A DNA stretch of 37,759 nucleotides from Elusimicrobiota bacterium (GTDB lineage Bacteria; Elusimicrobiota; Elusimicrobia; UBA1565; UBA9628): contig JAYVZL010000081.1 in the NCBI GenBank assembly GCA_043783505.1, positions 1 to 37,759 on the forward strand, read 5' to 3'. The notes beneath the pieces are model-generated. The model did no database searches. It worked only from the letters and a program-made list of their open reading frames with translations, and had not been told where the DNA came from. The position numbers and the translations under genes were made by a program. This document shows positions 8,635 through 31,441 of this stretch, in pieces (positions within the stretch are counted from its first letter, which is position 1; the number at the start of each line of letters is the position of its first letter).

Positions 8635-9455
8635 TTGTCCACCTTCTCCATGACGGCCGCGTAGCCCGCGTCGTCGTATTCGATCCCCAAGCGCTCTTCC
8701 CGGCCCGTTCCCGGCCCGTGAAAATCTGATCCGCCGCAGGCCAATAAGCCGCGGCTGAGAGCCCAATGGCCGTAGTTCCGGACTTGGGTTGGCGTGTGGC
8801 CCGCATAGAGGACTTCCACGCCCTGGAGGCCCGCGCGAACCAGCTCCTCGAGATCGTTTTCCTTGCCGGCCGTTTGAGGATGGGCGAGACAGGCCGTGCC
8901 GCCCGCGTCGCGGATCAGCGCGATGGCCTCGGCCGGGCTCGGCCCCATCGAGTCTACGTAGCCGGGCTTGCCCTTGATAAGGAACCGTTCGAAGGCTTCC
9001 TTGCGGCTTTTCACCACGCCCAGACGCCGCAGCGCGTCGGCCACGTGAGGCCGGCCGATGGTCTCATGCGCGCCCGCGCGCACCAAGTCGAAATCGATGC
9101 CTATGCCCAGGGCGCGCAAATTTTCCACGATGCGCTTGGCTCGGATGGTCCGGCGCTCGCGAAACTCGCTTAAGCGCTCGGCGAATCCAGGCGAATCGGG
9201 ACGAAACCCGTAGCCGAGGACATGGACTCGGTCGGCCAGGCCTTCTCCAGCGCAGTTGATCTCGATGCCTAGACGCACCTGTAGATTCTCGGCGGCTCCC
9301 GCCGCGAAAAGGTCGGCGGCGCCGGAAACGCTATCGTGGTCAGTGAGGACGAGGGTATCGACGCCGTTTTTGACCGCGCGCGCCACGAGCTCGGCGGGGG
9401 TCAGCGTCCCGTCGGAATAGATCGAATGGCAGTGCAGCTCGACGCGCTTGGACAC
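8628..9455 (-). CDS. PHP-domain phosphoesterase (TrpH/YciV-like)
   Basis: ELHCHSIYSDG, LTDHDS, GIEIN, HVLGY, GRPHVA, LAHP, GGSDFHG. Confidence 0.92.
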   Translation of the reverse strand: MSKRVELHCHSIYSDGTLTPAELVARAVKNGVDTLVLTDHDSVSGAADLFAAGAAENLQVRLGIEINCAGEGLADRVHVLGYGFRPDSPGFAERLSEFRERRTIRAKRIVENLRALGIGIDFDLVRAGAHETIGRPHVADALRRLGVVKSRKEAFERFLIKGKPGYVDSMGPSPAEAIALIRDAGGTACLAHPQTAGKENDLEELVRAGLQGVEVLYAGHTPTQVRNYGHWALSRGLLACGGSDFHGPGTGREERLGIEYDDAGYAAVMEKVDKC

Positions 9456-15894: not shown

Positions 15895-18800
15895 ATGTCC
15901 TCAAAGAAACATATCGCCGCATTGTTGGCGGCGCTGCAGATCGCGTGGTCCTTCTCAGCGGGAGCTTATCAAGCCCTGGCTCAGAGCGTCATCCACTCGC
16001 CGCAAGTCGGCGTCACGGGCCATGTCGTCGCGCCGCCGGTCGTGGGAAATCTTTCCTCTCAGCGGACAACGATGTCGGTCATGCCGCAAGACTTGTCAGT
16101 CTTCGCGCTGCCCGGGAACGCCTTTCCAGTCTTCGCAGCGATGCCGTCGGTCTTTCAGGCCAACCCTTCCCTGGTCGCGAAAGTCGTCCGCTCGCGCCCG
16201 TTCAAGGTTCCCCAAAGCCAGAAAGTTCCGTCCGTCCTTCCACGCAACATCCCGACGGAAGGATCAAAACTAGCCGGCGACAAAGCCTTCGCCGCGGTCT
16301 ATGACGAGAAGCTCCTCGACAACCCCGAGGCGACGCCTTCCGCCGCCGTCCCCGTTTCGGCCGCGCCGTCCGCGCCCGCCGCGATGCGTCCTCATACGAT
16401 CTCCCTCGCCAAAGCGAATCCTCTCGCCGACGCCGCGATCCCTGTTCCCGCCGCGCCGACACCGGCTCAAAGTCTCTGGCAGAAGCCCTCGGTTCAAGCG
16501 ACGCTCGGCGCGGTCGCGATCGCGGCGTCTTTGGCCGCCTTCGGGATCGCGACGACGGGAACCGTCATCCTGGGCGCACTGGGTATTCCGTGGATATTGA
16601 AGCTCGGCTGGCCCTGGAGTAAAAAAAATATTGAGTCCGGTCCCAAAGCGGTCAAAGACGTAGCCCTCGCCGGCCCGCTCATGTGGTTCTCGGCGGCCTC
16701 GCTTCTCTCTCTGGTCTCCATCGGGCGCGGCTCAAGTCCTTTATGGTACGCGGTCAACGGCGCGGGCGTGATCGAAAGCCTGACTATCCTCGGTCAGCTC
16801 AACGCCTACAAGAAGAGCCCAAAAGCGATGATCGCCACGGCCGCGACGATCGCGGTCGTCGCGGCAGGAGTCGCGGTCGTCGCCAGCCAGGTACTGCTGC
16901 CGCTCTCCGCCGGACTCACGGCGGCGTTCTGGGTCTCGATGGGCCTGCTCTGGCTCCTCGACGCTCCGCAAGTCCAGCGCAACTATCATTTATTTAAGGA
17001 CCAGGGCCGCACGCCGGAAGGCATCTCCGCGGGCTCCAAAGCCTTACTGGTTCTGGGCAGCCTCATGCATCTCTACGCCGCGATCATGGGCGCGGATGTG
17101 TCCTGGATGATCAACGCGGGCATCGCCGTCGTCATGGGCTCGACGATCCTCGCACAGATGTACCTTCCACGCCAGGCCAACGCCGTTATTGGTCCACTGG
17201 TGCGCGGCGTCGAGAAGCTTCTCTCCTTCATCCGCCCCGCGAAGGCCGCGACAGTCGCCGTGGCCCCTGTTGCCGCCGCCGCCCCTATTGAGGAAGCCCG
17301 CGCGCTCGTCGCCAAGGAATTCGCGGGAACCGACTACACGCGCTTCAAGGGCGTCAACGGCAAGGAAGCCCTCGACTCATTGGCCGAGAAGGCCGCAGCC
17401 CTGCCTGGGCGCAGCGCGATCATGCTCGGGGCGCCGACCGGGGCAGGCAAGTCCACGGTTTCGGCGGCGGTCGACAAAATCCTGCCCGGTCGCATCGCCA
17501 TATTGCCCGTGGACCGCTACTTCCGGCCCATCGACGAGGTTCCCAAGGGGATAGACGGCAAGCCCGACTTCGACCAGCCGCAGTCTCTTTACCTCGAACG
17601 CGCCGCGGCCGCCGCAAAAACCCTGCTCGAAGGAGGCCGCATCGAACTTCCGGTGCACGTGATCAACGGCGGCACGCGCTGGGACAGCGGCGAGTTCATG
17701 CAGCTCGACAAAGACGACATACTCATCATCGATTCGATCTACGCCTCCCACGAGCTGTTCGTTAACGCCGTTAAAGGGCACCAGTCGCTCAACGTTTACC
17801 TAACCGCGCCGACGTCCGTGCGCCTCGCGCGCCGTCTCAAGCGTGACATCGTCGAACGCGGCATCTCCGCGGAAAAGAACCTCCAGATGTGGCCGCAAAT
17901 TCTCATCGATGAGCGCGAGCACATTCTGCCGTTGCGCGCCAAGGCCGACGTGGTCCTAAATCTCGTCGGCGAGGAGGAATTGAGCCGCCTGCCCGAGACC
18001 TACGCCGAGATCATGGCCAAGAACTGGGAGGTTGCCGGCAAGGACGCGCGTGTCACCGAGCTTTTCACGCGCATGATTAAGGCCTCCATCGCGGCCGACG
18101 CCGCGCCGCTGTCGGCCGAAGTCCCGCAAGTGGACGTCACGGGAACCCCCCAGGCGCCGGAGCGCTTAAAGGTCCTCATCGATCACGCCCTTCGCGCCTA
18201 CGCCGACGTGCAGGACGATCATGCCCACCAAAAGAACTTCTCTGATTTTCACGTCCACGCCGCCGTAGAGCTCGCCGACGGGCGCTGGTTCTCGGCCGGC
18301 AACGTCGAGCTCAGCCGCGAGCTCACGCTCTGCGCCGAGCGCGCGGCGATCATGGCCGCCCTGGAAAGCTCGAAGCTCTCGCAGATCGTGCGCACGGTCA
18401 TCGTCAGCAACAGCGGCGAGCAGTTCAAGAAGCTGTGCGCCGAATGCCTGAGCTGGCTGGCCACGGGAAAATATTTCTCGCCCGAGACCGAGATCGTCAG
18501 CGTGGCGCGCGACCCGGCCAGCGGCCGCTTCTCGATTAAGATCAAGACGCTCAAGGAGCTTCTCCCCTTTCACGTCCCGTCCGCCGGGCTGGCCTCGATC
18601 ACGCAAAAGCCCGTCGACTCGCTCGAGCTCGACGTCAGTCCGCGCGCGGCCGCCTTAAATCCTTCCACTCGTGAGTTGACGAGCCTGATGGCGCAGGCGC
18701 GGCGCGCCTACGTCGCCGGCTCCGCGGAGCGATTCTCGACTAATCCCGCGGCCGCCGCCGTCAGCCTTGCGCCGTTCGGCCGCGCCAGCGCCGTCCGTTT

Positions 18801-19140
18801 CCAATGGGCGCCCCGCTTCAGCGAAGCCGAGGATCTGCAGGCCGCCTCCGCCGCGTTGGAAAAAACCACGCGCCTTCAGACGCGCCTGCGTCCGATCCTG
18901 CGTTTTATCGACCGCATGGCTTTCGGAAAGATGGGCCTCGAGGAGCGCTTCCTTGGCGCGCCTAAGATCGCGGCCCTCGCCTACTACGGCAAGGACGTCG
19001 ACATGCCGCGCATCCCAAGCTTCGGACGGCTCGTCAAGCAGGGCGCGAGCAAGGACACGCTGATCCTGCGCATCGAGAACGACCGCATCGCCGTGCGCGC
19101 GCTCGACGAGTACTTGCCGGAAATATACGGCCTGCCCTGA
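15895..19140 (+). CDS. Multidomain fusion: signal peptide/leader + SWEET/PQ-loop-like membrane domain + uridine kinase-like P-loop domain + cytidine deaminase domain(s)
   Basis: Start reassigned to ATG 15895 (TACCAT 7 nt upstream; signal peptide follows). TM region ~16490-17175 (APQVQRNY..EGIS). Kinase ~17410-17970 (GAPTGAGKST, PVDRYF, DFDQP, RLARRLKRDIVERG). CDA ~18160-18570 (FSDFHVHAAV, GNVE, CAER, CAEC). Confidence 0.8.
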   Translation: MSSKKHIAALLAALQIAWSFSAGAYQALAQSVIHSPQVGVTGHVVAPPVVGNLSSQRTTMSVMPQDLSVFALPGNAFPVFAAMPSVFQANPSLVAKVVRSRPFKVPQSQKVPSVLPRNIPTEGSKLAGDKAFAAVYDEKLLDNPEATPSAAVPVSAAPSAPAAMRPHTISLAKANPLADAAIPVPAAPTPAQSLWQKPSVQATLGAVAIAASLAAFGIATTGTVILGALGIPWILKLGWPWSKKNIESGPKAVKDVALAGPLMWFSAASLLSLVSIGRGSSPLWYAVNGAGVIESLTILGQLNAYKKSPKAMIATAATIAVVAAGVAVVASQVLLPLSAGLTAAFWVSMGLLWLLDAPQVQRNYHLFKDQGRTPEGISAGSKALLVLGSLMHLYAAIMGADVSWMINAGIAVVMGSTILAQMYLPRQANAVIGPLVRGVEKLLSFIRPAKAATVAVAPVAAAAPIEEARALVAKEFAGTDYTRFKGVNGKEALDSLAEKAAALPGRSAIMLGAPTGAGKSTVSAAVDKILPGRIAILPVDRYFRPIDEVPKGIDGKPDFDQPQSLYLERAAAAAKTLLEGGRIELPVHVINGGTRWDSGEFMQLDKDDILIIDSIYASHELFVNAVKGHQSLNVYLTAPTSVRLARRLKRDIVERGISAEKNLQMWPQILIDEREHILPLRAKADVVLNLVGEEELSRLPETYAEIMAKNWEVAGKDARVTELFTRMIKASIAADAAPLSAEVPQVDVTGTPQAPERLKVLIDHALRAYADVQDDHAHQKNFSDFHVHAAVELADGRWFSAGNVELSRELTLCAERAAIMAALESSKLSQIVRTVIVSNSGEQFKKLCAECLSWLATGKYFSPETEIVSVARDPASGRFSIKIKTLKELLPFHVPSAGLASITQKPVDSLELDVSPRAAALNPSTRELTSLMAQARRAYVAGSAERFSTNPAAAAVSLAPFGRASAVRFQWAPRFSEAEDLQAASAALEKTTRLQTRLRPILRFIDRMAFGKMGLEERFLGAPKIAALAYYGKDVDMPRIPSFGRLVKQGASKDTLILRIENDRIAVRALDEYLPEIYGLP

Positions 19141-19220
19141 TCCGAATTAATTCCCGGGAATAGCAACCGTCAATAGTAAACGGCGCTCCCCTCCAAAGGT
19201 CTGCTGCGAGCCGCGCGATT

Positions 19221-19236
19221 TGGTACTTTCTTCTTC
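19221..19236 (+). promoter_or_regulatory. Extended -10 promoter, predicted leaderless
   Basis: TGG-TACTTT-cttcttc-GTG(19237); no SD sequence. Confidence 0.5.
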
Positions 19237-20337
19237 GTGCTGACGACCCTGCCTCTGCTTTTGGCCCTATGCGCCGCCCCCCCACGCGCTCTCGCGCAAG
19301 CCCCCGCTGAAGCGCCCGCCTCCACGGCCACTTTGCGCGGCGTGCACTTCACCGGCTGGGCCGCGGGCGTGCCCAAGGTGCGGCGGAAATTCATCGCGGA
19401 CATGAAGTCCGGCGGTTTCAACGCGGTCGCTATCGCGCTCAAGGATTACGAAGGCAAGGTTTTCGTGCGCTATGTCCCGCTATCCATGCAAACCGGCGCT
19501 TTCGTCAACGCGATCCCCGACCTTCCCGGGACGGTGCGCGATTTCAAGGACGCGGGCATCTACACCATCGCGCGCATCGCGATATTCAAAGATGACCACC
19601 TCGCCCGCGCGCGTCCCGATCTGGCCATCCACTTTCCCGACGGCCGCATCTGGGCCAACGACAAGGGCACCGCTTGGGTCGACCCTTATAAAAAAGAAGT
19701 ATGGGAATATGTCATCGACATCGCCTCACGCGCCGCTCTCGCGGGCTTCGATGAGATCCAATACGACTACATCCGATTCCCATCCGACGGCAAGACTCGC
19801 CAGTGCCGGTACTCGCGCAAGAACCACTCGCCCGCGACGGCGTCCGAAGCCCTGCGTGAGTTTCTGACCCTGGCGCGCGAACGCCTAAAGCCCCTGGGCG
19901 TCAAAATATCCATCTGCACCTTCGGCTTGACGACCAGCGTCGACAACGGCATGGGCATCGGCCAGCGTCTGGAGCAGATGGCCGACTTAACCGACTACGT
20001 GTCGCCTATGATGTACCCCTCGCACTACGCCAAGGGCGAGTACGGCCTTAAAAATCCGAATCGGCAGCCGTACCTGACGATCCACCATGGAATCAAAGAC
20101 GCCCTCCGGCGCCTGGGGGGCAAGCCGGAGGCGCTGCGCCCTTACCTGCAGGACTTCTCCCTGGGAGTGCGCTACACGCCCGCCTACGTACGCACCCAGA
20201 TCCTCGCGGCAGAGGAATTGGGCGTGCGCGGCTGGATACTTTGGAACGCCCAAAATCACTATTCCTGGTCTGCGATCCAAGCCGGGCCGATCATAAGCCC
20301 CGAACCAGCCGGCCAGCCGTCCAAGGAAAAGCCATGA
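19237..20337 (+). CDS. Secreted putative glycoside hydrolase (DUF4015-like TIM barrel)
   Basis: Signal peptide; YTIARIAIFKD, WVDPY, GFDEIQYDYIRFP, SPMMYPSHY, RPYLQDF, WILWNA. Confidence 0.85.
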   Translation: MLTTLPLLLALCAAPPRALAQAPAEAPASTATLRGVHFTGWAAGVPKVRRKFIADMKSGGFNAVAIALKDYEGKVFVRYVPLSMQTGAFVNAIPDLPGTVRDFKDAGIYTIARIAIFKDDHLARARPDLAIHFPDGRIWANDKGTAWVDPYKKEVWEYVIDIASRAALAGFDEIQYDYIRFPSDGKTRQCRYSRKNHSPATASEALREFLTLARERLKPLGVKISICTFGLTTSVDNGMGIGQRLEQMADLTDYVSPMMYPSHYAKGEYGLKNPNRQPYLTIHHGIKDALRRLGGKPEALRPYLQDFSLGVRYTPAYVRTQILAAEELGVRGWILWNAQNHYSWSAIQAGPIISPEPAGQPSKEKP

Positions 20338-23246
20338 AATACCTCGCCTCTCTATGCCTAGCCGTGATCGTCGCCGCTCCCGCCGCGGCCAAATCCAAAG
20401 CGATTCCTTCGCTCGCGCCGTCCGTTCCGGCGGTACAAGAAAGCCCCCGACTCGACGACCCGATGGCCGTGAGCATCCATCGCCTGCCCAACGGCCTGAG
20501 CGTCTACCTCAGCCCCAACAAAGGCGAGCCCCGCGTCTCCGTCCGCGTCGCGGTGCGCGCCGGCTCCAAGAACGATCCGTCCGACAGCACGGGGATGGCG
20601 CACTACCTAGAGCACATGCTGTTTAAAGGCACGACGCGCCTCGGAACGCTCGACTATGAAAAAGAGCGCCCGCACCTGGAACGCATTCGCGAGCTTTACG
20701 AGGAGCTTTTCAAGACCAAGGACGAGGCGGCTCGCGCCAAGGTCTACAAAGAGATCGACGCCGTCAACGGCTTGGCCGCGAAGTCGGCCGTACCCAATGA
20801 GATCGACCGTTTCTATCGCGGCATCGGAGCCTCACGGGTCAACGCGCATACCTCCCATGAGGAAACGGTCTATCAGGTCAGCATCCCCGCCAATCGGCTC
20901 GAGGCCTGGGCCACGCTCGAAGCGGAGCGGTTCAAAAATCCCGTTTTCCGCCTTTTCCAAACCGAGCTTGAAACCGTCTACGAGGAGAAGAATCGCCGGG
21001 ACGACAACGCCGAGAGCGTTCTCAACGACGAGGTGGAACGGCGCCTTTTTAAGGTCCATCCATACGGGCAGGAGATCATCGGGAGCCTGGAGCATCTCAA
21101 GAACCCCTCGCTGTCGAAGATGTACGCCTTCTATGAGAACTGGTACTCGCCCAACAACATGGCCATCGCGCTATCCGGCGACTTCGACCGGGCCTCGACA
21201 CTCGCGCTGATCAAAAAGCATTTCGCCGCATGGACGCCGCGGCCGCTGCAGGCGCTGCCCGCATGGGAGCTGCCCAAACCAAAGGGCGCGGAGAAGCACG
21301 AGGTGAAATACGAGGCCGAGCAAAAGGTCGTCCTTGCCTGGCTGACCGCGTCGCGTTCCAACTCCGACGCTGACGCGCTCGAAGTAATGGACATGGTCGC
21401 CAACAACTCCGCGGCGGGCCTGCTGGACCTGCGCCTTAATCAGGCGCAGAAAGTGAAGGCCTCCGGATCGGGCCCCATATTCAAGAACGACGCCGGCTCC
21501 TGGAATGTCTGGGCAACGCCTAAGAAAGGACAATCTCTCGAGGAGGCGGAAGGCCTGCTCATGAGCGTCCTCGACTCCCTGAAGGCCGGTGATTTCACCG
21601 AGGACGACGTGGCCGCCGTGATCACGGATTTCGAGATCTCCGAAAAATCCAGGTTGGAGTCGAACGAGGCGCGGGCCGAGCTCATGGCCGAATCGTTCCT
21701 CGCGCTCGAGCCCTGGGAACGGGCCGTCGGCCGCCTGGACCGCATGCGCAAGATCAACAAGTCCGACGTCGTGCGCGTCGCCAAAAAATACTTGGGTTCC
21801 GATCGCGTCATCGTCTACCGCCGCGACGCCAAGACCGAGATCGCCAAGATATCCAAGCCCTCCTTCACGCCCGTGGCCATCGATCCTTCGCGCGAATCGG
21901 CCTTCCTCAAAGAGCTTCGCGCCATCCCGGCCGCGACTCTCGAGCCGCGCTGGCTCGTCGCCGGCCGCGACTATCAGATCACGCCCGTCGAAGGCGGTCG
22001 CCTCTACACGACCAAGAACCCCTACAACGACCTGTTCTCGCTCTCCTTCCAATTCGAGCGCGGCTCGCGCGCGGAGCGCGAGCTGTGCGCCGCGGTCGAC
22101 TTGCTTGAGCTGTCCGGCGCCGGTCCTTGGACCGCCGATGAATTCAAGAAAAAGCTCTACGCCTTGGGCACCACACTCTCCTACTCCTGCGGGGAGCAGG
22201 ACAGCTCGATCCAACTCGCCGGCCTCGACAGGAACCTCTGGGACTCGCTGCAGCTGGCGGCGCAGCGCTTCGACTGGCCCAATATCGAGTCCGGGACTCT
22301 CGCCAAGATGATCGACGTCACGCTCGGCGCGCGCGAAGATGAAAAGAAGAACCCCGGCGCCGTCCACTACGCCCTAGGTCAAGCCGCCATGCGCGGACGC
22401 GACAGCGAGGTGCTCAAGCGCCTGTCCAACGCCGAACTCAAGGCCCTCGAGGAGACGCGCCTCAAAGGCCTCATCCGCGACTTCCCGCTGCACCCGTGGC
22501 GCGCGGCCTACGTGGGCAACCGCTCCCCCTCGGAGATCGCCAAGCTCCTCGAGAGCGGCCGCCGCCTGCGTGCCGTGCCGCCGCGCGTGCCCCTCAAATT
22601 CCTGCGCCCAACCGGCGGCACGCGCGTGCTCTTCACCCAGCGCGACATGCTCCAGGCACAGGTCGGGCTGTTCGCCGCCGATGAGACCTATGACCCGGGT
22701 CGAGTCGTCGACTACCAATACTACTCCCAGTACATGGGCGGAAGCTTGAGCGGTGTGATCTTCCAAGAAGTGCGCGAGTCACGGGCCTTGGCCTACACAG
22801 CCGCCGGCGGGCACACGACGACGGCCGAAAAAGGCGACGACACTCAGATCTGGGGTCAACTCGGCTGTCAGGCCGACAAGACGCCCGAGGCAGTCAAACT
22901 GATGCTGTCCCTGCTCGCCGATTTCCCTTCGTCGGAAAAGCGTTTTCGCGAAGCCGCCAAATCCATCGAGGAGTCCTACCGCTCAAACCCCGTGCCTTTC
23001 CGCTCGATCCCAGCGACCGTGATCAGCTGGGAAGACCAAGGCATCGATGGCGGCGATCCGAGGCCGAAGCGTTTCGAGCAAGCACTCAAATATTCCCTCC
23101 CGAAGTTGGAATCTCTGGCCCAGAGCTTCAAAGCCAAGCCCATGACCGTTTGGATACTCGGCCATCGCGATCGGGTGGGGCTCGACTCTCTCAAGACCCT
23201 GGGCGAGTTCGAGGAAAAATCCCTCGACTCTCTGTTCCCCTACTGA
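20334..23246 (+). CDS. Secreted M16 (insulinase/pitrilysin) zinc peptidase
   Basis: Signal peptide MKYLASLCLAVIVAAPAAA; LPNGL, GMAHYLEHMLFKGT (HxxEH), VNAHTS, VYEEK, EVRESRALAY. ATGA overlap with the upstream gene. Confidence 0.92.
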   Translation: MKYLASLCLAVIVAAPAAAKSKAIPSLAPSVPAVQESPRLDDPMAVSIHRLPNGLSVYLSPNKGEPRVSVRVAVRAGSKNDPSDSTGMAHYLEHMLFKGTTRLGTLDYEKERPHLERIRELYEELFKTKDEAARAKVYKEIDAVNGLAAKSAVPNEIDRFYRGIGASRVNAHTSHEETVYQVSIPANRLEAWATLEAERFKNPVFRLFQTELETVYEEKNRRDDNAESVLNDEVERRLFKVHPYGQEIIGSLEHLKNPSLSKMYAFYENWYSPNNMAIALSGDFDRASTLALIKKHFAAWTPRPLQALPAWELPKPKGAEKHEVKYEAEQKVVLAWLTASRSNSDADALEVMDMVANNSAAGLLDLRLNQAQKVKASGSGPIFKNDAGSWNVWATPKKGQSLEEAEGLLMSVLDSLKAGDFTEDDVAAVITDFEISEKSRLESNEARAELMAESFLALEPWERAVGRLDRMRKINKSDVVRVAKKYLGSDRVIVYRRDAKTEIAKISKPSFTPVAIDPSRESAFLKELRAIPAATLEPRWLVAGRDYQITPVEGGRLYTTKNPYNDLFSLSFQFERGSRAERELCAAVDLLELSGAGPWTADEFKKKLYALGTTLSYSCGEQDSSIQLAGLDRNLWDSLQLAAQRFDWPNIESGTLAKMIDVTLGAREDEKKNPGAVHYALGQAAMRGRDSEVLKRLSNAELKALEETRLKGLIRDFPLHPWRAAYVGNRSPSEIAKLLESGRRLRAVPPRVPLKFLRPTGGTRVLFTQRDMLQAQVGLFAADETYDPGRVVDYQYYSQYMGGSLSGVIFQEVRESRALAYTAAGGHTTTAEKGDDTQIWGQLGCQADKTPEAVKLMLSLLADFPSSEKRFREAAKSIEESYRSNPVPFRSIPATVISWEDQGIDGGDPRPKRFEQALKYSLPKLESLAQSFKAKPMTVWILGHRDRVGLDSLKTLGEFEEKSLDSLFPY

Positions 23247-23935
23247 GCTTCGTCTTCTTTCACGGCGGCTTCTAGATCCTTGCTGAGGGGATCCAGCTCG
23301 TTTTTGAGCTTGGCGCGATCTTCCGCCGGCAACGGAGAGGCGTCCAGCTGCTTTTGGATGTCCGCCAGCTTGGCGCCGGCGTCGCCGGCCAGCTTGCCGA
23401 CCGGGGCGTTCGCCTTCGCCCCGCGGGCCTTGAAATTGGACACGGAACCGTTGGCGCGACTCATCAATTCGGATCGATTCGTCACGCCGTAATGGACGGT
23501 GGACGCCAGGGCTCCGTCGCGGACTTCAGCCCTCGCCGCGCCTCGCGCTTTTTTGACGCCGGCCGCGGCGGTCTTCTCCTCGATGACCTTGTCCTTGAAC
23601 CGAAGCTCGGCTGAAGAGCCGCCGCTAGTCGCGTCTAGATGCTCGCTCACCTCGAGCTTGGGCGCGAACGCGAGCGAAGAAGCCGGGGCAGCCGTCGACG
23701 GCGACGGCGACGACGGAATGATCGAACCCGCCCGAGACGCATCCGAGGATATCTCGTTTTCCGCGCTCATTCTCGAGGCGAAAGGCTTGGCGGGAATTTC
23801 GCCTTGTTCCGCGGGAGTGGCGGGAGAGGCGCCAAAGGCCGGTGACGCCGAAGGCAAAAAATATTTCGTCATGGCCGCCCCGCCGATGGCCGAGACCACC
23901 ACGAAACTCAACAAACCGATGATCAACGCTTTCAT
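23240..23935 (-). CDS. Hypothetical protein with N-terminal membrane anchor and Ser/Pro/Ala-rich linker
   Basis: ORF from ATG 23935 (GGGGG SD-like run upstream); hydrophobic MKALIIGLLSFVVVSAIGGAA; candidate promoter TTGAAT-N16-TATACT at 23985-23958. Confidence 0.7.
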   Translation of the reverse strand: MKALIIGLLSFVVVSAIGGAAMTKYFLPSASPAFGASPATPAEQGEIPAKPFASRMSAENEISSDASRAGSIIPSSPSPSTAAPASSLAFAPKLEVSEHLDATSGGSSAELRFKDKVIEEKTAAAGVKKARGAARAEVRDGALASTVHYGVTNRSELMSRANGSVSNFKARGAKANAPVGKLAGDAGAKLADIQKQLDASPLPAEDRAKLKNELDPLSKDLEAAVKEDEAQ

Positions 23936-24029
23936 GACATCCCCCGACGACTCCACCAGTATATCCGCGGCCCACTCAAATTCAAGGAAAAGGGCCTATT
24001 TTTACTGAAATTTTACTTTGGGCGCGGCT

Positions 24030-25085
24030 TTATAACGCTCGAGCCGCGGGAGTGGACAGCTCCGCGGCGAGCTTGGCGAGAACGTCGTCGTTTGGAAAGC
24101 GCGCGACGCCCGCGGCGGCGCGCTTAACGGCCTCTATGTTCCGGCCCAGCGCCATAAGGGCGCGGATGCCGTTGATATGAAAAGATCGCTCCTCGGGATA
24201 CTTTTCCAGGGCCCGGCCGCACAGCTGGGCGCATTCGCTCATACGCCCGCTGCGTCCATACACCGCGGACAAGCCAAGCCACGCGTACGCCTCATGGCCC
24301 CGGTGCTCGATCCACTCGCACAGGGCCTCGGCCTCGCCGTACATCTCAAAGCCCATCAGCGCGGTGAACACGTCCTCGAGGTACTGGTCGCCCGAGCCTC
24401 CGAGCGTCTGGAGGTGGCGCAGAATCTGCAAAAAGTGGCGGCAGGGCACCCAGGCGTGCTTCTCTCCCAGGGGCAGGCGCACCAGGCGTCTTAAATCCTC
24501 GGGGGTGAAGCGGCCGGCGTCAGGCATCACGAGAAGTATGGGCTTATCTTCGCCGGGCCAAGGCTTGAGGCGGCCGAAGGAGAGTCTCGCGCCGGCCGGG
24601 ATCACCAGCTTCTCCAGCGGCAGCTCGTGGCGTCTGGGCCCCTCATCGATGACGCGGCCCTCGGACAGGGCGCGCACGTCGTCCCACGGCACCGACACGA
24701 ACATTCCGGGGTCGAGGTAGAGCCTGATGCCGGCGAAGCGCTGCACGGCGCGCAGCAGGGTGAAGACTTGGCCGGGGGTATGGCCCATCCAGAGAAACTC
24801 CTTGCCTTTCGGGGTCTTCAGGCGTCTCGCGGAGACGAAGTCGCGGACGCGGTCGCGCGCGGGAAACACCGGCACCCACACGCCGCCCAGCTCGGGGTCC
24901 TTGTCCGCCCAAACCGGAAACGAGGACTCGGGCTTGGTCACGCGCTTGACCTCTCCTTCTTCAAGCGGGGTATCGACGGTCAAAAGGTAGGTTTCAGAGC
25001 GCATCAGCTCCTTAAACAATGCCGTGCGCGGAAGACGTGGATCCCGCGCCGACCGTCGGATTAGGTGCTCGAGATTCTCAACCAT
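24030..25085 (-). CDS. Hypothetical protein: SseB-like N-terminal domain and C-terminal TPR repeats
   Basis: LFKELMRSETYLL...WVPVFP resembles SseB-family N-domains; AYAWLGLSAVYGRSG..ALEKYPEE..ALMALGRNIEA has a TPR pattern; candidate promoter TTGACG-N17-TAAAGT at 25123-25095. Confidence 0.65.
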   Translation of the reverse strand: MVENLEHLIRRSARDPRLPRTALFKELMRSETYLLTVDTPLEEGEVKRVTKPESSFPVWADKDPELGGVWVPVFPARDRVRDFVSARRLKTPKGKEFLWMGHTPGQVFTLLRAVQRFAGIRLYLDPGMFVSVPWDDVRALSEGRVIDEGPRRHELPLEKLVIPAGARLSFGRLKPWPGEDKPILLVMPDAGRFTPEDLRRLVRLPLGEKHAWVPCRHFLQILRHLQTLGGSGDQYLEDVFTALMGFEMYGEAEALCEWIEHRGHEAYAWLGLSAVYGRSGRMSECAQLCGRALEKYPEERSFHINGIRALMALGRNIEAVKRAAAGVARFPNDDVLAKLAAELSTPAARAL

Positions 25086-25273
25086 ATTACCCTCACTTTA
25101 ACCCCGCAACCGGGGGGCGTCAAGACCCATTTCAACGAACGCAACAAAAGGCCCACATATTTCTAGGTCTAATGAGCGGCTCCCGTTTCCCCGATGGACC
25201 CATACGGTTTCTCCCGCTTCTCGATAGAATAGACGCTCGCACTTCGCGCTCAAATCACGGAGGAATACCCCCG

Positions 25274-28156
25274 ATGTTCAAGACGTCACTCGCCTCTCTC
25301 ATCTCGATCTCGCTTTTCGCGGCCGGCCCCGTCACCGCCGCCGCTCAGACCGTGTCGCGCGCCGCCGTCGGCGGCGTCAACGTTACGCCGATGATCGGCA
25401 ACAGCCTTCACAGCGGCGTCCAGGCGGCCCCCCTCCTCAATATGCCGGCCCTCTCGCCGAACAGCGCGATGATCATGGCTCCCGCCCTCGCCCCGACCGC
25501 GCTCCCGGCCACGCTCACGCCGACCGTAAAAGCCATGGCCGCCGCGCCTGTTTCGGCTTCTCCGTTGGCCGCGATCCAGTCCGATAAGGTCGCCGATAAG
25601 GCTCCCGCGCTCAATGCGTTATTCGATAGCTCCTCTCAAAAAGATGCTGAACTTGGGTCACAAGATGTAGACAATTCGAAGGTTTTGCCTATCGAGGTTG
25701 CATTCGATCCGGCAAATGCTCCTAAAGGCCATGTCGATGAATTCGAAAGCGCAATGATTGACAATCGAGAGAAGCTGCTCTCATTTTTGAAGACTAATTA
25801 TTCCATCACGGATGAAGATATCGCCTCGAAGTCGGTTCAACTTCGTATCCTCAACGCCACGACCGTGTTTAATCGGGTGGGCCATAAGACCGAGGCGCAT
25901 GAACAGTATGTCCTCCAACTGGAAAGGAAAGATGCGGAAGGGCATATGCGGCCAATAAATCCATCGTTTGCGGGTCAAGTTTGGTGGGTATGGGACCAAC
26001 AACGAGTGGTGAGGCTTGGTCTCGGGCTCGCAATACCTACCCCGACCGCCGTGAAATTTACAGGCGCGGCCGCAGTCGCCAATCCTATCCTTTTCTCGAT
26101 TGGGCTCGGTTCAAACGCTCAAATTAAAGACGCTTTCGAAGAGCAGCATTTCACAGGGGAAATCTTTAAAGTCGATCCCAAAAGCCAGATAAAGAGTTCC
26201 GAGTTGCCGGCTGTTAGCGATGCCGCTCTATTCCTTAAGAAGGGCGCCGGCTTCTACCAAGACACTTACCGCATTTCGTTGCTCAATCAGGATATCTACG
26301 TCGTGACGTGGAGTTGGCGGGCCGGGCGCACGATAGGGCTTTTCTCATTGGATGGGAAAACCATCGCAACGTTCGATAAGTGGAACTGGACGGTCGCGTC
26401 AGACACCCTCTTTAGCGGCTCTGCCGATTTCACTGCGAGTGCCGTCCAAAAGATCGACTCAAACAAGCCGGGCAATATCGATGCCTTCACGAAATCGGAA
26501 GACGGGGGTCTGAGCAACGAGAACAACCCCACTAGCCCCAACATCAAGCTCTTCGTGTATCAAACCCTCCTCAAAGTCGGCTTGTCGCGTCCCGTCACGG
26601 ACGTTCGCGAGCTCGTCAAGCCCGGCGCGGAGGCCGACCTCTTAAATCGCGGCTTCCACAGGGAACCCGACTCCAAGGGCATCAGGCTATACCTCCTCGG
26701 GCTAGAATCCCTTGGGAACAACGGCCAGCGCGTCGCCTATTTCAAGAACGGCACCGTCGACTTGGCCTCCGTCATCCAGCCGGGAGCTGTCGATACCTTC
26801 AGCATTCAGACCATCAAACTTGACAAAGCGGGCGTCATTTCAAACAAGACGGAATTTTTCGGCAACTCCGCGCCCGGCGCGACCGCGTCCGCCAAGAACA
26901 TTGTTGAGACCCTTGCGCTTCAGGCCGGCCCAAGCTCCCCCATTCAGCACTTTATTCTGCACTACCGCGGCATTCGGATGCTGACTTCCGAGGAACTTGA
27001 GCAGGTGAAGAAGAATATCCAAGCGACCGGAGCGCGCATCTCCGAGGAAAGCGCTTCCCTGCTGATGGTCGCCGGAAACGCCAAAAAATTGAAGGCTCTC
27101 GTCGCCTCCATGCCGGGCTGGACCTTGGCTCCGGAAGCCGCCTCTGCCAATCTTTTGTCCCCCGCCGTGCAGACCAAGAAGCCTGGCAACACCGGCATCG
27201 CGGGCGGCGTCATTTTTCAGGCGGTCTCTGAATTTAAAAATAAAAATTCCGCCCGCATCCTCGCCATCAAAGGCGTCTCCGGTGTGAGCGTCGCAATCGC
27301 CAAAGGTCCGATCAGCTCTCACGTCCTGCTCATAGACCTCGACAGCACCGTGCCGCAAGCGACGGTGGACGCCGCCATCAAGAAGCTTCCCGGATATGAC
27401 GGAAATTTAATCCATATCAAATACGAGATGATGGGCCCGATCGCGGCTCAAAACACTTCGGAAGCTCCGCCCGCTAAAGAGCGGCCGACTAAAACAGGCC
27501 CCGGCGGTCAAAATGTCATCTCGGGCTCGGAACTCGATTCTTTGTTCAGCCGCTGGAAGCCCAACCTCGCGATAACTAAGGAGAAAGGTCCGATCGCCGT
27601 CAAAGGCCCGGTTCTACCCAGTCAAACCGTTCCGGTCATCGAGCGCGAGCCCCTGCCCAAGTCCAGCGTCCTGCGCCAAAAGACAGAGGAGCTTGACGCC
27701 CAATGGGGAGATGACAACATCATGAACGGCTCGGTTGGCACATTGTCCGGACGATTCAAGGGCGTGCCCTCCAGCATCCAGATCAGCGTCGCCGCGAAAG
27801 TCATCCTCATGCAGACTTTCGAGGAATATGAAAGCCGCAAGCTTGAAAACTCCGTCGCCGCCTCGCCCATTCCGCTCAAGGATGCCATCGAGAAGGCGGT
27901 GATCAACCTCGCGGACGGTTTCAATTTAGACAAGAGCAACCCCGAGAATCTTGATGGCCTGCGCGAGCAGATCTCGCCCCTGACCTCTCTCCTGGGCAAA
28001 ACAGGCAGGGTCGTCGCCGTCTCGGCGAAATCGACTGCGATGGACGAAAACTCAGATCCCGCGGTTAAGGTGAACGTCGGTCTCGTCCTATTCGTCAATC
28101 AAAAGACGGGCGAATACGTCGCGTTCTACGCCCGCCAAGCCGGCGAATCACTCTAA
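25274..28156 (+). CDS. Large secreted modular hypothetical protein (960 aa)
   Basis: Start reassigned to ATG 25274 (GGAGG upstream); signal peptide ..VTAAA|QTV; Pro/Ala leader ending NALFDSS; several unrelated modules follow. Confidence 0.8.
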   Translation: MFKTSLASLISISLFAAGPVTAAAQTVSRAAVGGVNVTPMIGNSLHSGVQAAPLLNMPALSPNSAMIMAPALAPTALPATLTPTVKAMAAAPVSASPLAAIQSDKVADKAPALNALFDSSSQKDAELGSQDVDNSKVLPIEVAFDPANAPKGHVDEFESAMIDNREKLLSFLKTNYSITDEDIASKSVQLRILNATTVFNRVGHKTEAHEQYVLQLERKDAEGHMRPINPSFAGQVWWVWDQQRVVRLGLGLAIPTPTAVKFTGAAAVANPILFSIGLGSNAQIKDAFEEQHFTGEIFKVDPKSQIKSSELPAVSDAALFLKKGAGFYQDTYRISLLNQDIYVVTWSWRAGRTIGLFSLDGKTIATFDKWNWTVASDTLFSGSADFTASAVQKIDSNKPGNIDAFTKSEDGGLSNENNPTSPNIKLFVYQTLLKVGLSRPVTDVRELVKPGAEADLLNRGFHREPDSKGIRLYLLGLESLGNNGQRVAYFKNGTVDLASVIQPGAVDTFSIQTIKLDKAGVISNKTEFFGNSAPGATASAKNIVETLALQAGPSSPIQHFILHYRGIRMLTSEELEQVKKNIQATGARISEESASLLMVAGNAKKLKALVASMPGWTLAPEAASANLLSPAVQTKKPGNTGIAGGVIFQAVSEFKNKNSARILAIKGVSGVSVAIAKGPISSHVLLIDLDSTVPQATVDAAIKKLPGYDGNLIHIKYEMMGPIAAQNTSEAPPAKERPTKTGPGGQNVISGSELDSLFSRWKPNLAITKEKGPIAVKGPVLPSQTVPVIEREPLPKSSVLRQKTEELDAQWGDDNIMNGSVGTLSGRFKGVPSSIQISVAAKVILMQTFEEYESRKLENSVAASPIPLKDAIEKAVINLADGFNLDKSNPENLDGLREQISPLTSLLGKTGRVVAVSAKSTAMDENSDPAVKVNVGLVLFVNQKTGEYVAFYARQAGESL
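25467..25503 (+). repeat. 37-bp exact direct repeat, copy 1 (copy 2 at 28390-28426)
   Basis: CGATGATCATGGCTCCCGCCCTCGCCCCGACCGCGCT in both paralogous leaders (encodes MIMAPALAPTAL). Confidence 0.9.
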
Positions 28157-28196
28157 TCGTTAGTCGACATCCGTTCAATTGATGAGGAACATCCGA

Positions 28197-29162
28197 ATGT
28201 TTAAGAATTCTTGCACTTCGATCATTTCAGCCGCCATTCTCGCCGCCGCCCCCCTCACCGGCGCCGCCCAAACCGTCTTGCGCGGCGCCGTTATGGGGAT
28301 CAACACGACCCCGATGGTCGTCACCGGACTTCAGAGCCCCGTCCAGGCAACTTCTCTTTTTAACATGCCCGCTTTGTCGCCGAGTGTCCCGATGATCATG
28401 GCTCCCGCCCTCGCCCCGACCGCGCTTCCGGTCGCGCTGACGCCGGCTGCGAAAATCACGGCCGTCGCGGCCGTCGCAAATTCGCCGCTGTCCGCGATCC
28501 AGTCCCTGACTGTCGCCAATAAGACTCCCAACACTCTATTCGACAGTGCCTCTCAGAAAGAGGAGCTACCCGCAGTCGATCAGAATGATCTCAACAACGA
28601 AGTCGATCACCACAGCTCTTTCATCAAGCTCTACATGTACCAGAACCTTCTAAAAGCCGGGCTGAACCCCATCACGGACGCCCGCGAACTCATGAAGCCC
28701 GGCGCGGAGACCCTGCTCCTCAACCACGGTTTCAAACGGCAAGCCGACGTCGAAGGGACCAAGATCTACCTCCTGCGTACCGACATGAACAACGCTCAGA
28801 GCGTCTCCTTCTACAAGAACGGCTCCGCCAGCCTCACTTCCGTCTCGAAGCCCGGTTCTCAATTGTTCACTGAGACGATCAGCATCGACGACGAGGGGTA
28901 CATCTTCAACGACACGGGATTTTTTGGCAGCAGCACGGATGAGATAAAACGGTTCATCGCCACAAACCGCGCCGCTATCATGCGCATCCCAGGAGTCAAA
29001 GGGGTCGGCATCGACATTAAGAGACAGAACGGGGCAGGCGTACTCATCATCATAGACGACTTTACTACAACAGAAAAAATGAGAGCTCAGCTGCATGAAA
29101 CAGCTCCTGAACTAAAACGCTTTCCGATCAAATTCGTGAGAGTCGGCCCAAGCGTCGATTAG
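28197..29162 (+). CDS. Secreted hypothetical protein, short paralog of 25274..28156
   Basis: Signal peptide ..LTGAA|QTV; homologous leader ending NTLFDSAS; two modules align with internal modules of the upstream gene. Confidence 0.8.
   Translation: MFKNSCTSIISAAILAAAPLTGAAQTVLRGAVMGINTTPMVVTGLQSPVQATSLFNMPALSPSVPMIMAPALAPTALPVALTPAAKITAVAAVANSPLSAIQSLTVANKTPNTLFDSASQKEELPAVDQNDLNNEVDHHSSFIKLYMYQNLLKAGLNPITDARELMKPGAETLLLNHGFKRQADVEGTKIYLLRTDMNNAQSVSFYKNGSASLTSVSKPGSQLFTETISIDDEGYIFNDTGFFGSSTDEIKRFIATNRAAIMRIPGVKGVGIDIKRQNGAGVLIIIDDFTTTEKMRAQLHETAPELKRFPIKFVRVGPSVD
28390..28426 (+). repeat. 37-bp exact direct repeat, copy 2
   Basis: Identical to 25467-25503. Confidence 0.9.
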
Positions 29163-29197
29163 ACGATCACGCGCAGACTACAGTGTCGCAAGACGTC

Positions 29198-31441
29198 ATG
29201 ACCAGGCTCAAAAAACAACTCGCCAACCTCCTCACGGCCGCTATGATCGCGGCCTCGCTGCCCTGGAGCGCCTACGCTCAGAATGTCCGCCTAACGCAGC
29301 CGGCTATAGCGCGGATTCCCGGGATAGCGGGCCTACTCCCATCCACGCAGCTTCCCCTCGCGCTGAACCCGAACGCCGTCGCGGCGCAGCCTATTCTTCT
29401 AATCCCTACAATCAACTCTCAACAGGCCCCATCGACCATTGCAAAGCCTAAAAGTCCGCTGAGCATTGCCGGCGCAGAGAGTGCCCTCACGGTCGCGGCG
29501 CCGACGCAAACCGAGACAGCTAAACACGCGGCCGACGACGTCCTATTCGACGGCACGCGAACACGGGACGCGAAGGAACTCAATACAGCCGTCGCCGCGC
29601 CGACCGGCTCGGCGCGCAAGATGGAAAAGCTCGCGCGGATATCCGGGGAAGCGGTCGGCCGCGAGGCGCTGCGGAAGTGGGTGCTTAAGACCGTCCTTCA
29701 ATTCGGATTCGAGAAGGACGCGCGCCAGATCAACAAGGTCATCGAGCGCCTCGCGACCTCGCAGGAAACCGATCGCTGGGACGCGCTTAAACTCAGCCCT
29801 TCCGAGACCTTGACGTTCTCCAGCCCGAACGGCGGCAAGGAATCCGCCATCGAGTTCACCCGCGACAACGGCAAGGGACATAAGCCCACCATCGTCAGCG
29901 GGCGTTACGACGGCTCGGGCGGCTACAGCCTGAGTCTTCAGTTTCCGCAGATGAGCCATAGCCTGGTTCTGACGCAGGACAAGAAGATCAAGAAAGACCC
30001 TGCCGTGAAACAGCTTTCCGACACGGAATTCGCCGCGTGGCTGACGACCCAGGAAGGGCTCGAGAACGTGGACGCCCTCGCGCGGCGGCAGCTGGACCAG
30101 CCAGGCTTCGCGGCCTGGGAGGAATTCAAGGATAAGCGCGGACACTATCCCGCGTTTTCCCCGCGCGCGGCCCTGCTGGGCGAGATCACGACCGCCGAAC
30201 TCTATCACCTGCTCGATTGGAACGGATTTCAGGAGCAATACAAACAGCAAGGAAAAGTGCGGCTTGATATCATCTACGGCTACATCGGCGATGAAAAACT
30301 GGGCGAGCCGGATCCTATCGACCTCGAGCAAGCCCGCGAAGTCGTCAAGAAACTGAAGGCGAAAGGCTACAGCCAGACAGGAGACGTCCTGTCAAAAGAA
30401 TTCTCCTACAAAGGAAAGCTCGTCACCCTCGAAGTGCGCGTGACTCCAGCGGCGATTTCCAACGTCGTCCTTACAAACCGCATCTCCAAAATACTCGACC
30501 ACGCGGGAATACATTCGCACAAAAACATCATCCGGAACATCCTCGAGAAGGGAACGGCCCGGGCCTGGATGTTCCCCGCCGGCGCCTCCGCACAGTGGCT
30601 GACGGCCACCATCAACGAAGAGATCGACAATTTCAACCGCCTCCAAGACAGTAGTTCATTCAAGGCCAAGAAAGCCTTTGAGGAGTCGCTCTCGAAAGCC
30701 GACGTCGTCGTCTACGACGGCCACTCGGGCGCCGGCTACGGCTTCCGCTTCGGACCCAAGAATCTCTTCCTGGACCGCGTCTTCACGTTCACTTTCGGAA
30801 GGCTGCGCCTTTACATCGACAAGCAGATCGAGAAGATCAGCAAGATCGGCTTCGTGCAGCGTTTTCTCCGAAAGCTTCCCTGGAATGAAGACGGCTATTT
30901 CTACCTCGAAATGTTCACGATCCCTTTCCTATCCGGCAAAGCCCTCAACGAACTGATGATCGATCCCCTGAGGCAGCGCCAGCTTCTATTTTTCGACGCC
31001 TGCAGGACTCTGTTCCTCTACGACAAGGCTTGGAGAAAGCTCATGCAAAGCTACCAACGACTGATGAAGCCCGAGCAAATCGATTTAATCGGCACCGCGA
31101 ATGACTCCAGCACCGGCGACGGCGTGGCCGCCAAGCTCAACATGGTCGACGCCGTCGAAAAAGCCATGAACGCCAAGCAGATCGTCGATCATCTTCGCTC
31201 CGGCTCCGTCGACGGCACCCAATACGCGCCCGGGAAATTGATGGGCGTGGCGGACGGCACCTATGATGATATCTTCCGCGACCCGGAAAACAAGGCACAC
31301 CCATCCCACACTCCCAACACCGATACCCCGGGCTTCATCATCGACAATAACGGCGCCCAAGTGAACTTTTTTAAGCCCAGCGACCAGCAGCAATCCTTCC
31401 CCTACTGGACGCTTCAGCCCTCGCCGTATCGCGGCTATTGA
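29198..31441 (+). CDS. Secreted protein with putative clan CD (caspase/gingipain-fold) cysteine protease domain
   Basis: Signal peptide ..WSAYA|QNV; leader ending DVLFDGT; DVVVYDGHSG and LLFFDACRT fit a His-Cys dyad, each following a hydrophobic strand. Confidence 0.65.
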   Translation: MTRLKKQLANLLTAAMIAASLPWSAYAQNVRLTQPAIARIPGIAGLLPSTQLPLALNPNAVAAQPILLIPTINSQQAPSTIAKPKSPLSIAGAESALTVAAPTQTETAKHAADDVLFDGTRTRDAKELNTAVAAPTGSARKMEKLARISGEAVGREALRKWVLKTVLQFGFEKDARQINKVIERLATSQETDRWDALKLSPSETLTFSSPNGGKESAIEFTRDNGKGHKPTIVSGRYDGSGGYSLSLQFPQMSHSLVLTQDKKIKKDPAVKQLSDTEFAAWLTTQEGLENVDALARRQLDQPGFAAWEEFKDKRGHYPAFSPRAALLGEITTAELYHLLDWNGFQEQYKQQGKVRLDIIYGYIGDEKLGEPDPIDLEQAREVVKKLKAKGYSQTGDVLSKEFSYKGKLVTLEVRVTPAAISNVVLTNRISKILDHAGIHSHKNIIRNILEKGTARAWMFPAGASAQWLTATINEEIDNFNRLQDSSSFKAKKAFEESLSKADVVVYDGHSGAGYGFRFGPKNLFLDRVFTFTFGRLRLYIDKQIEKISKIGFVQRFLRKLPWNEDGYFYLEMFTIPFLSGKALNELMIDPLRQRQLLFFDACRTLFLYDKAWRKLMQSYQRLMKPEQIDLIGTANDSSTGDGVAAKLNMVDAVEKAMNAKQIVDHLRSGSVDGTQYAPGKLMGVADGTYDDIFRDPENKAHPSHTPNTDTPGFIIDNNGAQVNFFKPSDQQQSFPYWTLQPSPYRGY

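Follow-up and report, generated by a model that had tools for sequence, protein, structure and literature searches.

A candidate N-terminal export leader ending in a Phe-Asp-Gly motif on diverse proteins of one order of Elusimicrobiota

Background

In curli secretion (type VIII), the N22 segment of CsgA is 22 amino acids (aa) long, Gly/Asn-rich and serves one amyloid subunit. The bipartite signals of complex plastids, which are eukaryotic and served by known translocons, pair a signal peptide with an acid-poor transit peptide that holds a key Phe. Colicins lack a signal peptide, and their transport is import rather than export; autotransporters carry a C-terminal barrel. Here we describe a leader with partial likeness to these systems, found in a stretch of 37,759 nucleotides from Elusimicrobiota bacterium (contig JAYVZL010000081.1 of GenBank assembly GCA_043783505.1), which was analysed at its full length and is called the window below. 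The leader consists of a signal peptide, a long Pro/Ala-rich spacer and a short motif, most often Phe-Asp-Gly (FDG), and it precedes unrelated cargo. It appears to be lineage-specific, and no Pfam or NCBIfam model or literature description of it was found. With about as much belief as doubt, we read it as a Sec export leader whose spacer and FDG would serve a further sorting or processing step.

With CsgA N22 and CsgG the leader shares a charge-poor, disordered mature N-terminus after a Sec signal, Cys-poor cargo and the idea of unfolded cargo passing to an outer-membrane channel. It differs in being 60-120 aa long and Pro/Ala-rich, in carrying FDG and in standing on dozens of large enzymes. 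Two CsgG-like matches in the source genome of the window were weak and partial (36.7 and 29.9 bits, profile positions 6-102 and 22-101 of 210). The likeness to complex plastids lies in the signal peptide, the acid-poor unstructured stretch, the critical aromatic residue and the use on carriers and duplicate housekeeping enzymes, whereas the present organism is a bacterium with no second compartment known, and its Phe stands at the far end of the spacer. Colicins also have a disordered, charge-poor N-terminal threading segment with short linear binding motifs, and autotransporters and type I substrates resemble the tagged proteins in avoiding Cys, as proteins that cross the outer membrane unfolded; none of these three is known to us to have the leader's motif.

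In Bacteroidetes, Gln occupies position +1 of most signal peptidase I substrates (Bochtler et al. 2018, PMC5837995). The present leaders resemble those substrates in their n-, h- and c-regions with AxA and in Gln at +1, which is found in 11 of 22 leader-class proteins. This Q-rule, described for Bacteroidetes, involves neither a spacer nor FDG, whereas here Gln is enriched in the tagged class without being exclusive to it (21/237 among other AxA signal-like proteins). The plant-type glutaminyl cyclase PF05096 was not found in the source genome, which is 83% complete; M28-type cyclase was not searched for, and one tagged M28 protein is present. In Atribacter laminatus, N-terminal extensions of 10-73 aa occur in 34 genes, one of them being predicted as an amphipathic helix, and they are discussed by the authors in relation to the unusual cell plan (Katayama et al. 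2020, PMC7736352). Those extensions are likewise lineage-specific additions on housekeeping proteins, including an FtsZ paralog pair with one copy extended, but they do not consist of a signal peptide with spacer and motif, and the passages of the paper that treat them report no exclusion of Cys (PMC7736352).

The leader in the window

The original prediction, made from the letters of this stretch, held that four genes (g1 to g4) share an N-terminal leader ahead of different cargo. Their coordinates and sequences were confirmed, as were signal-peptide-like starts in all four (ALA↓QSV in g1, AAA↓QTV in g2, GAA↓QTV in g3 and AYA↓QNV in g4, the arrow marking the predicted cleavage) and an aromatic residue at positions 136, 117, 115 and 117, respectively. 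The genes, the parts of their leaders and two comparators are as follows.

25274..28156, + strand: g2, 960 aa, leader and modular cargo of no known family, no Cys
25274..25345, + strand: g2 signal peptide, aa 1-24, predicted cleavage AAA↓QTV (from the sequence and our own heuristic)
25346..25621, + strand: g2 spacer, aa 25-116, with 11 Pro, 22 Ala, 4 Lys+Arg, 2 Asp+Glu and a 56 aa uncharged run
25622..25630, + strand: g2 F-D-S motif, F117
28197..29162, + strand: g3, 321 aa, paralog of g2
28539..28547, + strand: g3 F-D-S motif, F115
29198..31441, + strand: g4, 747 aa, leader and rare cargo
29546..29554, + strand: g4 F-D-G motif, F117
15895..19140, + strand: g1, 1081 aa, doubtful member of the leader class
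19237..20337, + strand: DUF4015 enzyme (comparator), signal peptide ALA↓QAP, no spacer
20334..23246, + strand: M16 peptidase (comparator), signal peptide, about 20 aa, then the domain

The spacers of g2, g3 and g4 are 89-92 aa long and Pro/Ala-rich, contain an uncharged run of 43-56 aa and end in L-F-D-[GS]. A profile built from 22 leaders of the source genome (see below) matched g2 best within the window (E 2.7e-28). The leaders of g2 and g3 are 60% identical and one block of their cargo is 49% identical; together with that of C242, a gene on another contig, these leaders are paralogous. The similarity between the g4 and g2 leaders is weak (E 0.002). No Pfam or NCBIfam family was matched by g2, g3 or g4.

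A common leader thus held for these three genes and not for g1, which has Y-D in place of the motif, is missed by the 22-leader profile at E<10 and shows no similarity to the other three leaders. Its longest uncharged run is 29 aa, against the class criterion of at least 30 aa. A signal peptide with Gln at +1, a Pro-rich spacer and low Cys are what it shares with the class, and on present evidence g1 is not a demonstrable member and is not counted as one. The spacer had been described as acid-poor; acids are indeed few, but the spacer is better described as uncharged, its longest charge-free run being 30-68 aa in the 22 leaders. The contrast drawn with the ordinary secreted enzymes stood as far as the spacer is concerned, which both DUF4015 and M16 lack, but DUF4015 also has ALA↓Q. 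As had been noted, no secretion machinery was found in the window.

Motif enrichment and size of the class

Genes of the source genome (3.2 Mb in 385 contigs, of which the window is C81) were called with a crude GC3 filter, which gave 2524 open reading frames (ORFs). Signal peptides were assigned with our own rule-based test, not with SignalP or another dedicated predictor, and this test is too permissive (1000 positives). For the enrichment analysis, 57 proteins were picked without reference to the motif, by a signal-like start together with 50 aa or more of non-hydrophobic sequence poor in acids and rich in Pro/Ala. FDG was the top-ranked 3-mer at their spacer ends (7 windows against 0.44 expected, p 2.9e-7) and LFD ranked third. 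The pattern F[DE][GSNA] occurred in 20/57 spacer-end windows, compared with 24/335 windows downstream in the same proteins (p 1e-7) and 883/13039 windows of other proteins (p 5e-10). Replacing F with Y, L, V, A, W or I gave no spacer-end enrichment. A reverse test, in which FD motifs were scored for a preceding acid-poor Pro/Ala stretch, gave a weak difference contaminated by membrane proteins (5.2% against about 2-4% in controls), and the comparison of non-transmembrane uncharged runs of at least 40 aa that are followed by the motif was noisy (N-terminal 21/64, internal 16/127). The motif is positionally enriched at spacer ends and is not confined to the g2/g3 paralogs, so the refutation proposed along with the original prediction fails.

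A rule-based list gave 22 candidates from the 2524 ORFs. Four of them (C144, C261, C321 and C370) were dropped as atypical by eye, and four others (C242, C24, the second C213 gene and C31) were added via BLAST or profile, which left 22 proteins, spread over 19 contigs, as the working set. BLAST and a 6-seed leader profile recovered close paralogs only, and the 22-seed profile was needed to go further: it brought in 9 additional proteins of the source genome at E<0.05, and a search of that genome with the same alignment gave 24 matches at E≤0.01. The class therefore comprises at least 22 proteins by design and about 30 by profile, and the proposal of a recurrent tag on unrelated cargo was borne out, in this genome and in related ones.

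Anatomy of the leader

In the 22 aligned leaders the signal peptide has a basic n-region (+1 to +4), a hydrophobic core of about 12 aa, a Gly or Pro and then AxA, and by our own rule set these leaders and all four window genes qualify as Sec/signal peptidase I substrates. An Arg usually stands 4-6 residues past the predicted cleavage site. No lipobox was seen, in that g1-g4 have no Cys at the cleavage site and the 22 spacers have none at all. The Tat signal S/T-R-R-x-F-L-K is absent from g1-g4, and T-R-R occurs in some other members.

The spacers measure 60-121 aa, with 21% Ala and 12% Pro and neither Trp nor Cys. They hold 3-11 Lys+Arg and 0-5 Asp+Glu, one run of 30-68 residues is free of charge, and their maximal 17-residue hydropathy is 0.9-1.9. 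In the motif, Phe is present in 22/22 leaders and forms the sole invariant column of the alignment; it is followed by Asp (20) or Glu (2) and then by Gly (12), Asn (4) or Ser (3), is preceded by Leu or Met in 15/22, and a Lys or Arg often lies 4-6 residues past the motif.

The first Pfam domain begins 3 to about 65 residues past the motif. The shortest distances, 3 residues in a tagged glycogen synthase (GlgA) and 7 in PNK3P, would fit a junction between leader and mature protein. In an AF2 model of the N-terminus of tagged Lon, built from five orthologs, residues 1-152, FDG included, have pLDDT<50 and the fold starts from about residue 153, which makes FDG a free linear motif outside any fold. 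The leader (residues 1 to about 140) was covered by no model of Pfam in 73 tagged proteins, nor of NCBIfam in 15 proteins at E≤0.1.

One member of the g2 family, P0016 (476 aa), holds the spacer-end module (…SPL.AIQS…V.D..PAL..LFDNASQKE) twice, in the leader and near residues 385-415. The motif-bearing segment can, to judge from this repeat, duplicate internally in that family.

Distribution and conservation in related genomes

The related genomes are recorded as metagenome-assembled genomes under the names 'Elusimicrobiota bacterium' or 'Elusimicrobia bacterium'. At E≤0.01 the leader profile matched in 22/31 of them, with up to 12 matches per genome; by group, these were 14/18 genomes of the same genus, 2/6 of a second family and 5/6 of a third family of the order. 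In a phylum sample of 301 genomes, with 13 candidates scored in each, matches were obtained in 8/26 and 2/4 genomes of two families of the order, and none in the other 270 genomes. The sensitivity of the profile is limited, as one genus without a match carries tagged adenylate kinases with A-F-D-N and T-F-D-G. As far as the profile detects it, the leader appears to be restricted to one order of Elusimicrobiota. A library-wide search, in which a low-complexity profile has limited reach, covered 1.84 billion proteins and matched 23 of them at E≤0.001, in every case at the N-terminus; several come from the source genome, and one is P0020, a complete ortholog of a leader-carrier fusion described below. 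Literature searches and the main text of a preprint on groundwater Elusimicrobia (10.1101/765248) yielded no description of the leader; neither 'signal peptide' nor 'secret' occurs in that main text.

Tagged Lon orthologs from four genomes of the genus share the signal peptide, AQV.xR and an invariant F-D-G, and their spacers diverge by substitutions and in-frame indels. Between these orthologs the motif is shown by alignment to be the best-conserved element of the putative leader. Among the profile matches in relatives, 17/22 have [x]F[DE][GNSQDA] at residues 113-164, a count that is partly circular because the profile includes the motif. The fusion of the leader to a carrier of the MFS family in C271 has a complete ortholog, P0020.

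Cargo and cysteine content

In the source genome the tagged proteins include an RNase R-like protein (RNB), an exonuclease of the RNase T type, Endonuclease I, PNK3P, PHP and several PLD proteins, and the peptidases comprise M13, C1-like, M28 and S8 members. A LonA cargo scores above the NCBIfam equivalog cut-off and has Walker A, Walker B and D-G-P-S-A-G with the catalytic Ser intact. SLT, ABM with lipocalin, three MFS carriers and a TLC-like carrier with half an adenylate kinase complete the family-assigned cargo, and many cargo proteins have no family. Relatives add GlgA, full adenylate kinase (Adk), PPK2, MoxR, PspA/IM30 and subtilase. These tagged enzymes are additional to untagged ones: the source genome also encodes Lon, RNB, M13 and PHP proteins without the tag, and canonical GlgA was present in 5/5 genomes checked, with tagged GlgA in 3/5.

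Cys is nearly excluded from the cargo. It is absent from the cargo of 27/32 class proteins against 195/1798 proteins of the genome (Mann-Whitney p 2.5e-16), and for comparison 45/159 ordinary signal-peptide-like soluble proteins and 87/930 soluble proteins without a signal are free of Cys. Tagged copies have fewer Cys than their untagged paralogs (GlgA 1 vs 8, Adk 0 vs 4-5, Lon 0 vs 4), and the four tagged Lon orthologs have 0, 0, 0 and 1. A single cargo Cys is kept by g4, as C602, and by the C1 peptidase. Proteins that operate in an oxidising extracytoplasmic space, or enter one unfolded, typically avoid Cys, and the exclusion is in our view the strongest indirect sign that the tagged proteins may leave the cytoplasm. 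The tagged Endonuclease I homolog on C254 (L088) has a cargo without Cys; the family is normally disulfide-rich.

A Lon paralog in a genome from another family of the order (L030 of G019) has a plain signal peptide (SYA↓QF) and neither the substrate-binding N domain nor a spacer. A signal-bearing Lon is accordingly not limited to the FDG leader.

The tag also occurs on five polytopic carriers, namely the MFS members C120, C271 with its complete ortholog P0020, and C20, and the TLC-like C273. The last of these (L112:1162-3291, - strand, 709 aa) has the leader variant R-F-N-G, the N-terminal half of an ADK domain (Pfam positions 3-88 of 151) and a TLC/MFS-like carrier; outside the genus, TLC-like orthologs lack an N-terminal addition and have a length of about 420-450 aa.

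Possible roles of the leader

In the reading that we favour, part one of the leader would be an ordinary Sec/signal peptidase I signal peptide that usually exposes Gln, part two a disordered, Pro/Ala/Leu-rich spacer of 60-120 aa with a stretch of 30-68 aa without charge, and part three a short linear motif, [LM]-F-[DE]-[GNS], a few to about 65 residues ahead of the first folded domain. Sec would carry the tagged proteins out of the cytoplasm, and the spacer and FDG would act in a further step, which could be unfolded passage via an outer-membrane channel, retention in the envelope or removal of the spacer at the FDG junction by a processing peptidase. That the M16 peptidase of the window might be this enzyme is a speculative idea, for which co-occurrence would say little, since any gene specific to the order would co-vary with the leader. 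The presence of exported families among the cargo and the extreme exclusion of Cys fit an export-linked role beyond that of a plain signal peptide; Endonuclease_1, SLT, M28 and S8 families are exported wherever known and could not function in the cytoplasm, and M13 likewise counts among classic exported hydrolases. Should the tag prove to be a sorting signal, it would define a novel pathway of export or processing in a little-studied phylum, and a simple sequence rule would predict the exoproteome of this lineage, at least 30 proteins per genome.

Several observations weigh against this reading. A Lon that depends on ATP and has intact motifs carries an export-type leader, and Lon, Adk, PPK2, MoxR and GlgA rely on ATP, ADP-glucose or polyphosphate, none of which would be expected in a periplasm. 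A conserved Arg so soon after the predicted cleavage site is unusual for Sec substrates. The source genome has three secretins, TatC and the two weak CsgG-like matches, none of which is linked to the leader. In the carriers, a Lys/Arg-rich segment right after the leader implies that this segment is cytoplasmic, the motif-A loop of the MFS family places it there as well in C271/P0020, and in C271, C20 and C273 the signal peptide and the first helix of the carrier are not separated by another hydrophobic helix. The carriers argue that the part past the motif may stay cytoplasmic in some members. Either ATP enzymes work outside the cytoplasm, which would change the view of energy in the envelope, or a canonical-looking signal peptide serves a role other than export.

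An ordinary signal peptide might simply be followed by a disordered linker, of the kind that comes after many signal peptides and lipoboxes, with FDG a mere hinge or N-cap that holds no sorting information. The poor conservation of the spacer sequence, the position of the motif near domain starts and the failure to find a partner or machinery all suit such a passive role. It is nonetheless unlikely, as the motif stands 3 to about 65 aa ahead of unrelated folds and in an AF2-disordered region, hence in no one fold, the tag goes together with the loss of Cys and with duplicated enzymes of the cytoplasm, it is missing from ordinary exported enzymes of the source genome, and the conservation of the motif would be left unexplained.

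The carriers lend themselves to a different account, according to which the signal-like helix stays in the inner membrane as a tether, or the spacer re-crosses the membrane, so that the spacer would bind cytoplasmic enzymes and the N-termini of carriers to the membrane and the cargo would remain cytoplasmic instead of being exported. The cytoplasmic placement of the next carrier segment by the positive-inside rule and motif A agrees with this, as do the ATP- or nucleotide-dependent cargo (Lon, Adk, PPK2, MoxR, GlgA and the RNase R-like protein) and one weakly hydrophobic stretch within the C120 spacer, a candidate re-crossing helix. On the other hand, n-regions of +1 to +4 and a c-region with a helix breaker and AxA↓Q are as in cleaved signals, the high Pro content and weak hydrophobicity of most spacers would not let them span a bilayer, the Endonuclease I, SLT, M28 and S8 cargo would have no role in the cytoplasm, and the exclusion of Cys exceeds that of ordinary signal-peptide proteins and extends to paralogs that have lost their Cys. 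We consider a tether quite improbable for these reasons.

A more far-reaching and decidedly doubtful possibility is that these Elusimicrobiota maintain proteins that use ATP and nucleotides outside the cytoplasm, either in a periplasm supplied with energy or in a membrane-bounded compartment so far overlooked, with the leader as the import tag. Tagged second copies of Adk, PPK2, Lon, MoxR, GlgA and PspA, the Adk-TLC carrier and nucleases, all of which have shed Cys, would then form a nucleotide economy beyond the inner membrane.

The original prediction had suggested polymorphic effectors aimed at a host or prey. Delivery into such a cell, where ATP and nucleic acids are available and cargo could be threaded by an uncharged leader, would account for the wealth of nucleases, 3'-phosphatase, PLD, peptidases and lytic transglycosylase and would supply ATP to the cargo that depends on it, and the N-terminal translocation domains of colicins are likewise disordered and poor in charge and carry short binding motifs. 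Yet the family-assigned cargo consists mainly of hydrolases, carriers and housekeeping paralogs on genes scattered over the genome, GlgA, PPK2, MoxR, PspA and the carriers are not effector-like, and genomes of 2.5-4.9 Mb give no sign of host dependence. The tagged class does not have the make-up of polymorphic toxins, with an N-terminal trafficking part, a variable toxin and an adjacent immunity gene. No toxin or immunity family, immunity-gene pattern or injection system was seen in the window; the neighbours of tagged genes on other contigs were not inspected. The suggestion of effectors was not upheld, and delivery into other cells is in our estimation very unlikely.

Chance translation of high-GC low-complexity DNA or the local duplication of one gene start, to which the paralogous leaders of g2, g3 and C242 and the lack of significant similarity between g1 and the others might point, has a negligible probability and is refuted by the controlled enrichment tests, the profile matches and members on 19 contigs, and by orthologs that keep the motif through spacer divergence with in-frame indels and, in P0020, the whole leader-MFS fusion.

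The g4 cargo

Only three relatives of g4 were found among 5.8 billion protein clusters. The closest, P0006 (73% identity), keeps the whole leader including L-F-D-G, and the other two (46-48% identity) start near the cargo and have no leader in the called form. A candidate catalytic dyad was located as follows.

30722..31003, + strand: g4 candidate catalytic dyad, H509 in D-G-H-S-G and C602 in F-F-D-A-C

Both residues are invariant in 4/4 homologs, and C602 is the sole Cys of the cargo. The nearest named atlas clusters were Peptidase_C25, CHAT and DUF6345 at 0.81-0.84, values under the reliability bar that serve as a lead only. With a mean pLDDT of 43.7, and residues 482-747 below 50, the AF2 model could not support a search by fold, and the cargo had no match in the PDB by sequence. 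Clan CD cysteine peptidases, with which the cargo was compared, have a His-Gly ... Ala-Cys dyad on a caspase-like fold. A cysteine protease is a plausible but putative label for g4.

Other genes of the window

In g1 the signal peptide and Pro-rich spacer are followed by a membrane block (about aa 200-455), a uridine kinase (509-695) and a cytidine deaminase-like part (766-893), the last of which contains the only Cys residues of the protein (813, 848 and 851). The membrane block has several helices and holds a PQ-loop-like stretch, 'LDAPQVQRN'. Overall, g1 looks like a fusion for nucleoside uptake and salvage.

The other genes of the window are of housekeeping type (SUF, NadA, Def, Pth, an ABC-2 transporter, TldD and others). 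An untagged PHP-domain protein at 8628-9455 (- strand) is a paralog, at 30% identity, of the tagged PHP protein on contig C325. At 4171-6546 (- strand), a protein of 791 aa has FIST N and C domains confined to its last 350 residues, and its first 430 are without a family match.

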